From Escherichia phage JL22, in sequence record ON018986.2: a stretch of DNA of 64,000 nt. One strand, given 5' to 3'. How positions within the stretch are numbered: the stretch's first letter is position 1; the number at the start of each line of letters is the position of its first letter. Of this stretch, positions 57,101 through 60,100 are shown piece by piece. The position numbers were made by a program.

Positions 57101-60100
57101 AAGTAAGCCAGTGCATAATTCCATTTTTTACTGACCTTAAAAGCAAAATCAAAACGATGATGAGGATGATCGCCAGAATCTGGCTAATAACAGGCGCATC
57201 TAAAAATGCACTCAGGAACTGAAAAAAAGCAGTCATTAAGGTGGTTCCTTGTCAAATGTAAAGGAGCACTTGCTCACGTTGACGTAGAAACCCAACCCCT
57301 ATATAGTTGGATTCGGTGAAAGAAAGTCGTTAACGTGAGCTTACGGCACATGTTTTCGGAACAACATCAGGGAACGGCTAATTCCTTGATGCGGATGGGG
57401 TCTGTAATGCAGACCCTATCTATTAACGTCATGATTGCATCTCAAATTTTCTCCTTATCTTCATTAATCAAAATTCATTTCATTTGTGAAACATCACAAT
57501 ATTTAGAAAATGGCCCTCTTGCAAGTGCATAACTTTGTGGATAAATCAGGAAGAAAAAAGTTGATTCTGCGCACGGCAAGGCAGATAAGCTGTGCACAAA
57601 AATCAATGGGAGAAGAAAAAAAATTAAAAGTTACTTTGCTGGTTAAATAATAGTCGTTACTCAATTATTCTGGATGGGATTTGATATGCACGATTGGAAT
57701 ATTGCAGCTAAAAGTCAGGAAGAACGGGATAAGGTTAACGTTGATCTGGCTGCCAGCGGTGTGGCGTACAAAGAGCGATTGAACATACCTGTCATAGCTG
57801 AACAGGTAGCCCGCGAGTAACCAGAGAATCTGCGCACCTATTTCATGGAACGGCTACGGCACTACCGGCAGTTAAGCCTCCAGTTGCCAAAAGGGAGCGA
57901 TCCGGCATATCAGAAAGATGATGCCGTAAAGAAATAGCGGTAGTTAACCGTTTTGAACTTCTCGTATCCTGGCAATGACAGCTTCATGCTGGGCTTGGAT
58001 AGCGGCTTTTTCGTTTTCAAGTCGGGCAATAGACATCTCTAATTCTTTGCTGTACCAGGCGAGTTGGGCCAGGTTCATCCGGTTGTGGTCGAGAGTTGGA
58101 GACACTTCGACGCGCTCCCTTTCTTCCTGCTTTAATGAGAAGAGATTCATCTCATCCCTTGAGGAAAATTCAGCAACAATTTCTTGTTGATGATCCGGTC
58201 GCTGCGGCATCCTCGCCAGTATAAATGGCGGTTCTTTTGAAAACATGAATGTCGGCTGTGACCGTGTTTTCACCCATCTAGCCTGCTGTCTTTCGGCAAG
58301 CTCACAGGCTTCATCATAGTTATTTGCCAAACCAAGCACGGATGGACGGTCCCACGCGCCACCATTCAGACAATAAACAACAATTTTCCCGTCATGTTCT
58401 GTAACCCCATAGGGATGGTCCCACCAGGCGTCCAGCTGAGCTTTAGAGCGTTTCTCGTTAGGAGTGCAGTCAAAATTTTTGGGCAATACAGGATCGAGAG
58501 GAATGCGATTAGGCATAGCTAATTCCTTATTAACTGATTGGCAACGAGGTTACGCTGATCCGTTGGTGATGAATAGTAGCAAAGAGCACAAAATCATCAG
58601 CGGTGGTTGATGTACGTAACGCGTTTGCGCCAAAGGTGTCTCTTTAATGTATACTGTATAAATGAACAGTGTTATTGAGGTGAAAACGCTATGGGCTTCC
58701 CTTCTCCTGCGGCGGATTATGTTGAAAGCCGAATTTCTCTTGATCAGCAACTAATCAGGCATCCATCAGCAACCTACTTCATGCGGGCAGCTGATAGCCA
58801 TCACCGTGAGGGAATATTGCAGGGTGCTTTGCTGGTGGTTGATTCCTCGCTTACTCCGGTTGATGGTTCTCTGCTTGTGTGCGCTATGGAGGGTGAATAT
58901 CGCATAAAGAGATACCGAAAGTATCCGCGCCAGCACCTGGAGGATTTAAGCACCGGGAAGAAAGAGGCGTTACCAGTGGATGACGATGGATGCACGGGGA
59001 GTAATGCTGTGTTTGGTGTGATCACTCATGTCATTAATGATGCCCGAAGTGGGGAATTTGATGATTGTCCGGTGATTTAAGCTGCAAAGTGCTGGTGCTT
59101 TATGCCTGTGAAGTTTATAATTGTGTACACATAACGAGTACACGAGGTGTTTATGCAATCCATTAACTTCCGTACCGCGCGCGGCAACCTTTCTGAAGTG
59201 CTCAACAATGTTGAAGCCGGGGAAGAGGTTGAAATCACCCGCAGAGGCCGTGAGCCAGCAGTAATTGTCAGCAAGGCTACTTTCGAAGCCTACAAAAAAG
59301 CGGCGCTGGATGCTGAATTTGCATCCCTGTTTGACACCCTGGACTCCACCAACAAGGAACTGGTTAACCGATAATGAGGCATATATCACCGGAAGAACTT
59401 ATTGCGCTTCATGATGCGAATATAAACCGCTACGGCGGCCTGCCTGGCATGTCAGATCCGGGCAGGGCAGAGGCCATTATCGGGAGAGTCCAGGCCAGAG
59501 TTGTGTACGAAGAGATTACCGACCTTTTCGAAGTCTCCGCAACCTACCTGGTGGCTACTGCGAGAGGGCATATATTCAATGATGCCAATAAGCGTACCGC
59601 GCTAAACAGTGCGCTGTTATTTCTACGCCGTAACGGGGTGCAGGTATTTGATTCACCTGAACTGGCAGACCTTACCGTAGGGGCTGCGACCGGAGAGATA
59701 TCTGTATCTTCTGTCGCCGACACGTTACGTAGATTGTATGGTTCCGCGGAGTAGATTAATGGCACGTAAATACAACAAATTGTCCCGTGAAGCGTTAAAG
59801 ATGCTTCTTGATGGCGTGAGTCGCCGCGAGGTAAAGCAATACCTGGTTGGTAAGCAAATTGGTGCCAGGACCGCTATTGCTGTGTTATGCCGTCAGGAAA
59901 TGGTTGTGCTTAAACAGAGAATGCCGGGCAGCAGATAAAGCCCAATCAGTGATGAAAGGTGTGATGTGAAAGCCGTAATTACTCCCTTTGTACAAAAAGA
60001 GCTTGGCGTCGCCACATTCAAAGTGGATCAGGAAGTCAGAAAGCTGGTGGAGGCTGGCCGTAAATTTATTATGGAGCCGGTGCCGCGTGAGTTAATCGAG

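Follow-up and report, generated by a model that had tools for sequence, protein, structure and literature searches.

The DNA analysed here (the window, 64 kb in full) belongs to a P1-like phage-plasmid of the p0111 type, about 99.6 kb in size and carrying ISEcp1/IS5-blaCTX-M-55. The gene hot, which encodes a homologue of the DNA polymerase III theta subunit, lies between its late promoter and the convergent gene lxr, and its reading frame is interrupted by an in-frame stop codon. The features at the locus are as follows.

57628..57651, plus strand: late promoter LPhot (-22 box and -10), placed from the P1 annotation (86521-86544, offset 28893)
57686..57937, plus strand: hot pseudogene, conceptually 83 codons and a stop; DNA polymerase III theta subunit homologue
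57686..57820, plus strand: residual hot open reading frame, 44 codons and TAA; helices 1 and 2 only
57689, plus strand: T to C relative to P1 (Tyr2His), a natural polymorphism outside the defect
57818..57820, plus strand: in-frame ochre codon TAA in place of Gln45 (CAA), through C to T at 57818
57821..57937, plus strand: remnant of hot past the stop, untranslated; encodes helix 3 and the C-terminal tail
57944..58516, minus strand: lxr, the convergent neighbour of hot

Translation of 57686-57937 on the plus strand yields 84 codons. Codon 45 (57818-57820) is TAA, as a sequence-only reading of the same DNA had stated. That reading had also described the frame as theta-like, and comparisons with known proteins bear this out. 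With glutamine restored at codon 45, the frame matches P1 Hot (1SE7/2IDO, 83 aa) over its full length (E = 4e-51; 82 of 83 residues identical, the sole substitution being Tyr2His) and E. coli theta over residues 5-68 (E = 2e-19). The Pfam profile of the theta/Hot family (PF06440, cut-off 34.6 bits) scores 70.8 bits for residues 1-44 before the stop, 29.8 bits for the half after it, which aligns to profile positions 44-67, and 113 bits for the two parts joined, above the curated threshold. All 38 residues past the stop are the same as in P1 Hot (residues 46-83), hence the continuing similarity in frame is no accident. Glutamine occupies the stop position in both P1 Hot and E. coli theta. CAA is found at codon 45 in each of the 29 IMG/VR contigs matching the surrounding 39-mer, and Gln45 in 33 of 34 aligned plasmid and chromosomal homologues, the exception having a five-residue deletion there. 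No homologue ending at this codon was found in these two sets, in agreement with the earlier view of a single-base nonsense change.

The start of hot can be placed at two positions. The P1 annotation begins 12 nt upstream, at 57674, and lists 57686 as an alternative, which is the start chosen by RefSeq PGAP. Counted from 57674, the stop is codon 49 and the residual open reading frame (57674-57820) encodes 48 aa. Members of the theta/Hot family have an unbroken open reading frame of about 76-87 codons encoding all three helices, which the TAA at codon 45 disrupts in the window. The location of the locus after LPhot and between upfO and lxr/humD is that of hot, the flanking DNA matches P1 save for single-base differences, and the RefSeq context agrees. 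The stop falls on a codon that is a sense codon in homologues, and homology continues beyond it in frame. Judged from these features, the locus is a pseudogene of the theta/Hot family and not a functional member.

Whether the TAA allele is real was assessed with independent assemblies standing in for raw reads. The sequence-only reading had offered two alternatives, an inactivated hot or a wrong base call, of which the first is supported and the second is contradicted by the distribution of the allele. The TAA allele is identical in at least nine independently sequenced assemblies from human, chicken, pig and ostrich sources in China and Korea, and the 401 bp around hot are 100% identical across plasmids of independent projects. 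The carriers include the following.

CP041922: human sputum, Zhejiang
CP092645: human urine, Hangzhou
CP126933: chicken liver, Korea
CP118682: ostrich brain, China
JBXSEZ010000004: swine, Korea
OQ423471, OQ423472 and OQ423482: plasmid records, OQ423471 being pESBL-blaCTXM-55
JATAOM010000025 of GCA_036915495: draft contig

Across NCBI, ENA and Logan assemblies, which comprise both short-read and long-read data, 53 contigs (120 index blocks) encode exactly the 44-aa product. A sequencing or assembly error, with C as the true base at 57818 and an intact hot, would require only a one-base substitution, the smallest possible artefact, in a frame that is otherwise perfect. The same T would then have to have arisen in all of these assemblies and contigs, which come from different hosts, laboratories, countries and platforms. 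Systematic substitution errors in nanopore data tend to occur at Dam (GATC) and Dcm (CCWGG) motifs, and 57818 lies in neither. Close relatives sequenced in comparable ways show C at this position, so both alleles are resolved. We thus assign an error almost no probability, and in practice the independent assemblies rule it out; the change is heritable. RefSeq PGAP annotates the locus in five carrier plasmids as "DNA polymerase III subunit theta", a pseudogene with "internal stop". The pseudogene is already flagged by automatic public annotation and is in this sense ordinary and not new, and we found no comment on it in the literature searched. Annotation should retain hot as a pseudogene and not restore its reading frame as if the stop were an error.

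The signals upstream of hot are unaffected. Between 57396 and 57688 the window shows no difference from P1, and a promoter-like site is predicted at 57624-57651. Since LPhot is unchanged from P1, the truncated open reading frame is presumably still transcribed. Creation of a new promoter or terminator by the mutation was considered and rejected, as no promoter- or terminator-like site spans 57818. The gene is the last in its transcription unit and faces lxr, which leaves no downstream gene to suffer nonsense polarity.

Full-length Hot might still be made in meaningful amounts if a suppressor tRNA decoded the TAA or if UAA-C allowed programmed or leaky readthrough. The intact downstream frame is compatible with this, and a C after the stop codon is a comparatively weak termination context. 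However, UAA, which both release factors recognise, terminates translation more efficiently than any other stop codon in E. coli, and its basal readthrough is far below 1%. The window encodes three tRNAs, Asn(GTT), Thr(TGT) and one with a CAT anticodon that is annotated as Ile (Ile2), the same set as in P1; no suppressor is among them, and the remaining 35.6 kb of the plasmid contain no tRNA gene at all. The stop occurs in a single plasmid lineage and in none of the other hot and holE homologues compared, whereas a programmed recoding site would be conserved. The many unrelated wild hosts of the plasmid are also unlikely to share ochre suppressors. Readthrough on a relevant scale is accordingly extremely unlikely. 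Re-initiation at Met53 (ATG at 57845, a 30-aa open reading frame) appears implausible as well, as no Shine-Dalgarno-like sequence precedes this codon and the product would lack helices 1 and 2.

Translation would hence end after residue 44, keeping helices 1 and 2 and losing helix 3 along with the C-terminal half. In an AlphaFold2 model of an intact homologue (pLDDT 84.9), helices span residues 11-31, 38-44 and 47-66, and the third of these, the most confident part of the model, lies wholly past the stop. An alignment of 34 homologues places seven invariant residues after the stop (R50, Y52, Y60, R61, S64, L67 and Y75). Modelled alone, the 44-residue fragment gives a low-confidence prediction (pLDDT 67) with one helix. 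Given the removal of helix 3 and of the seven invariant residues, the truncated product is very probably non-functional. Most likely, the fragment would fail to adopt the theta/Hot fold of three helices, through which the epsilon proofreading subunit is bound and stabilised, and would probably be degraded.

An N-terminal peptide of 44-48 aa might nevertheless have an activity of its own, for example by binding epsilon through helix 1 as a weak stabiliser or as a dominant-negative competitor of theta, which would alter the host mutation rate. The peptide includes the part of the family that is best conserved (K16-R43), its promoter and start region are unchanged, and a successful epidemic plasmid lineage has kept the allele. 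The frame is wholly undecayed apart from the stop, which fits a very recent event and is also compatible with residual use of the N-terminus. The loss of helix 3 and the invariant residues and the predicted single helix of the isolated fragment speak against such an activity, as does the fact that none of the 34 aligned intact family members is so short. Persistence is equally explained by hitch-hiking with blaCTX-M-55. An active fragment is thus very unlikely, and a non-functional product remains our preferred reading.

The nearest intact alleles are those of pAVS0068-B and pFXCREC180-3 (protein WP_069723427.1, with His2 and Gln45), which have C at 57818 and so agree with a single-base change. 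Over about 1.2 kb (57300-58585), they differ from the window at 57818 and at one site in lxr (58585), and one of the two plasmids has an additional 1-nt indel at 57554. Counted over hot alone, 1 nt separates the window from the nearest intact allele and 2 nt separate it from P1. The single difference from the nearest intact alleles means that no further decay has taken place and that the event is recent. Residue 2 is Tyr, His, Ser or Asn among intact alleles, which makes Tyr2His an ordinary polymorphism. Contig counts are 53 for the TAA allele, 95 for the intact His2 allele and at least 1000 for the P1-type allele. Together, these observations show that a recent single C-to-T transition at 57818 converted Gln45 (CAA) to ochre (TAA), and that it arose on the common His2 allele in the ancestor of the p0111 blaCTX-M-55 phage-plasmid lineage of about 99.6 kb. 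Comparison of the hot of the window with a divergent allele (different at 30 of 249 positions) gives a dN/dS of 0.12, which indicates that hot is normally under purifying selection.

The lineage itself is highly clonal. Compared with pPEC395_3 (NZ_JBXSEZ010000004.1; 99,605 bp; swine faeces, Korea), the window has a single difference in 64,000 bases, A at 40417 where pPEC395_3 has G. The P1-like backbone carries a resistance insertion at 27271-31466, with an architecture as described for JL22, and has a replication region at 24682-26542 that is unlike that of P1 and interrupts the P1 homology in the blast blocks. The genes of these two regions are as follows.

24682-25365: GIY-YIG nuclease gene, between the replication initiator and parA
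25658-26542: non-P1 replication initiator gene, p0111 type according to PMC9603915
27271-28467: partial ISEcp1 transposase gene
28613-29593: IS5, interrupting ISEcp1
29988-30863: blaCTX-M-55, an intact open reading frame of 291 aa
30910-31254: partial WbuC-like gene
31266-31466: truncated hypothetical gene beside the WbuC-like gene

Other features were observed elsewhere in the plasmid. A single plus-strand open reading frame of 328 aa at 55679-56665 corresponds to two partial pseudogenes in RefSeq, the N-terminus of a DUF551 protein (55679-56146) and the C-terminus of a hypothetical protein (56300-56665). Deletion or recombination in the variable pmgT-pmgV region has apparently fused the two genes in frame. 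A small hypothetical gene at 55167-55345, frameshifted according to the pPEC395_3 annotation, is degraded and lies in the same variable region as hot. Outside the window, pPEC395_3 (NZ_JBXSEZ010000004.1) carries the porin gene ompC and a second icd-ant (antirepressor) module beside c1, at 40885-41997 and 60145-61475, respectively. Both are unusual cargo compared with P1.

E. coli hosts carry their own chromosomal holE, which encodes theta. PMC2528190 describes theta as non-essential and as a stabiliser of epsilon, a role in which Hot can replace it, and P1 as otherwise dependent on the host Pol III. PMC7556043 summarises Hot as a protein made during both lysogeny and lytic growth, with a benefit to the phage that is hypothetical. 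The gene sits in "highly variable region 8", one of eight such regions in P1-like phage-plasmids (PMC9603915). The hot part of our query found no match in P7, SJ46 and several other P1-like records. Because theta and Hot are dispensable and the host has holE, the loss of hot was probably tolerated. As an accessory gene in a variable region and at the end of its unit, hot could be lost with the host supplying theta, and the broken allele would have spread with the plasmid.

A second, independent nonsense allele of hot is also widespread. Found in another P1-like plasmid lineage, it results from CAG to TAG at codon 62, beyond which the frame is still homologous, and is present on 81 contigs (176 index blocks; loci L044-L047, positions 1501-1752, e.g., AP027904.1 and ERZ13617348 NODE_24). 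Recombination breakpoints as the origin of these 61-aa variants were rejected, as the DNA shows the nonsense change and in-frame homology beyond it. Like the allele in the window, the amber allele arose through C to T at a Gln codon and has an in-frame stop. Of 249 positions compared between the two, 30 differ (about 88% identity). The stop at codon 62 keeps most of helix 3, unlike the stop in the window, and the amber allele lies between the type I gene hsdM (upstream) and humD without lxr, whereas the window has lxr.

That hot acquired nonsense alleles twice independently (Q45 ochre and Q62 amber), each found on dozens of contigs and in widely spread lineages, raises the question of whether the loss of hot was positively selected, for instance through altered fidelity or stability of the replisome that helps the resistance plasmid or its hosts. 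However, two events in a gene present on thousands of contigs match the expectation for neutral decay, and most alleles are intact and under purifying selection (see the dN/dS above). The Q62 allele may still be functional, with most of helix 3 retained, and linkage to blaCTX-M-55 explains the spread. Positive selection is thus unlikely. A more speculative form of this idea holds that the loss of Hot was not neutral, and that either the missing stabiliser of epsilon or a helix-1/helix-2 fragment competing with theta changed host fidelity or phage-plasmid replication, which aided the epidemic blaCTX-M-55 lineage, with the Q62 amber allele reflecting the same selection. We regard this as very improbable. 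The simplest reading is the occasional loss of a dispensable accessory gene, raised to moderate frequency by linkage to a resistance gene. A recent nonsense pseudogene whose loss was tolerated and which spread with its plasmid is, as a whole account, highly probable.

The TAA allele is a natural knock-out of hot in a lineage circulating in humans, poultry, pigs and ostrich, which favours the view that Hot can be dispensed with in nature, as theta can. Plasmids with TAA and CAA, one base apart in this region, provide ready isogenic material for studying what Hot contributes to P1-type elements.

Among known systems, JL22 (ON018986; PMC9603915) matches the lineage of the window, with 99,605 bp, a p0111 repA' and IS1380(ISEcp1)/IS5-blaCTX-M-55 beside mlp. 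JL22 can be induced with mitomycin C, forms virions and lysogenises E. coli without forming plaques (PMC9603915). The same paper names hot just within the variable region and mentions no stop. If JL22 carries the TAA allele, the lineage is also still able to form virions and to lysogenise new hosts. The RefSeq entries FPV29_RS24530 (NZ_CP041922.1), QQA25_RS26070 (NZ_CP126933.1) and AC13JO_RS25940 (NZ_JBXSEZ010000004.1) show no difference from the window, with the same sequence, coordinates and internal-stop call. The window is not P1 itself, as collinear blastn blocks are 94.8-99.3% identical to NC_005856 and several segments have been replaced. P1 hot (NC_005856, 86567/86579-86830) shares the order upfO, LPhot, hot and convergent lxr, with both humD and phd/doc downstream, and the DNA of the hot region is 99.8% identical over 801 bp. 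The two differ in codon 45, CAA in P1 and TAA in the window, where the product is limited to residues 1-44, and in the surrounding element, which in the window is a p0111-type blaCTX-M-55 phage-plasmid with blocks 95-99% identical to P1. E. coli holE (1DU2, 2AE9, 2AXD and 5M1S) belongs to the same family, PF06440, and has Gln at the equivalent position. In contrast to the plasmid-borne and broken paralogue in the window, holE is chromosomal and intact (76 aa), and this host copy presumably supplies the function.
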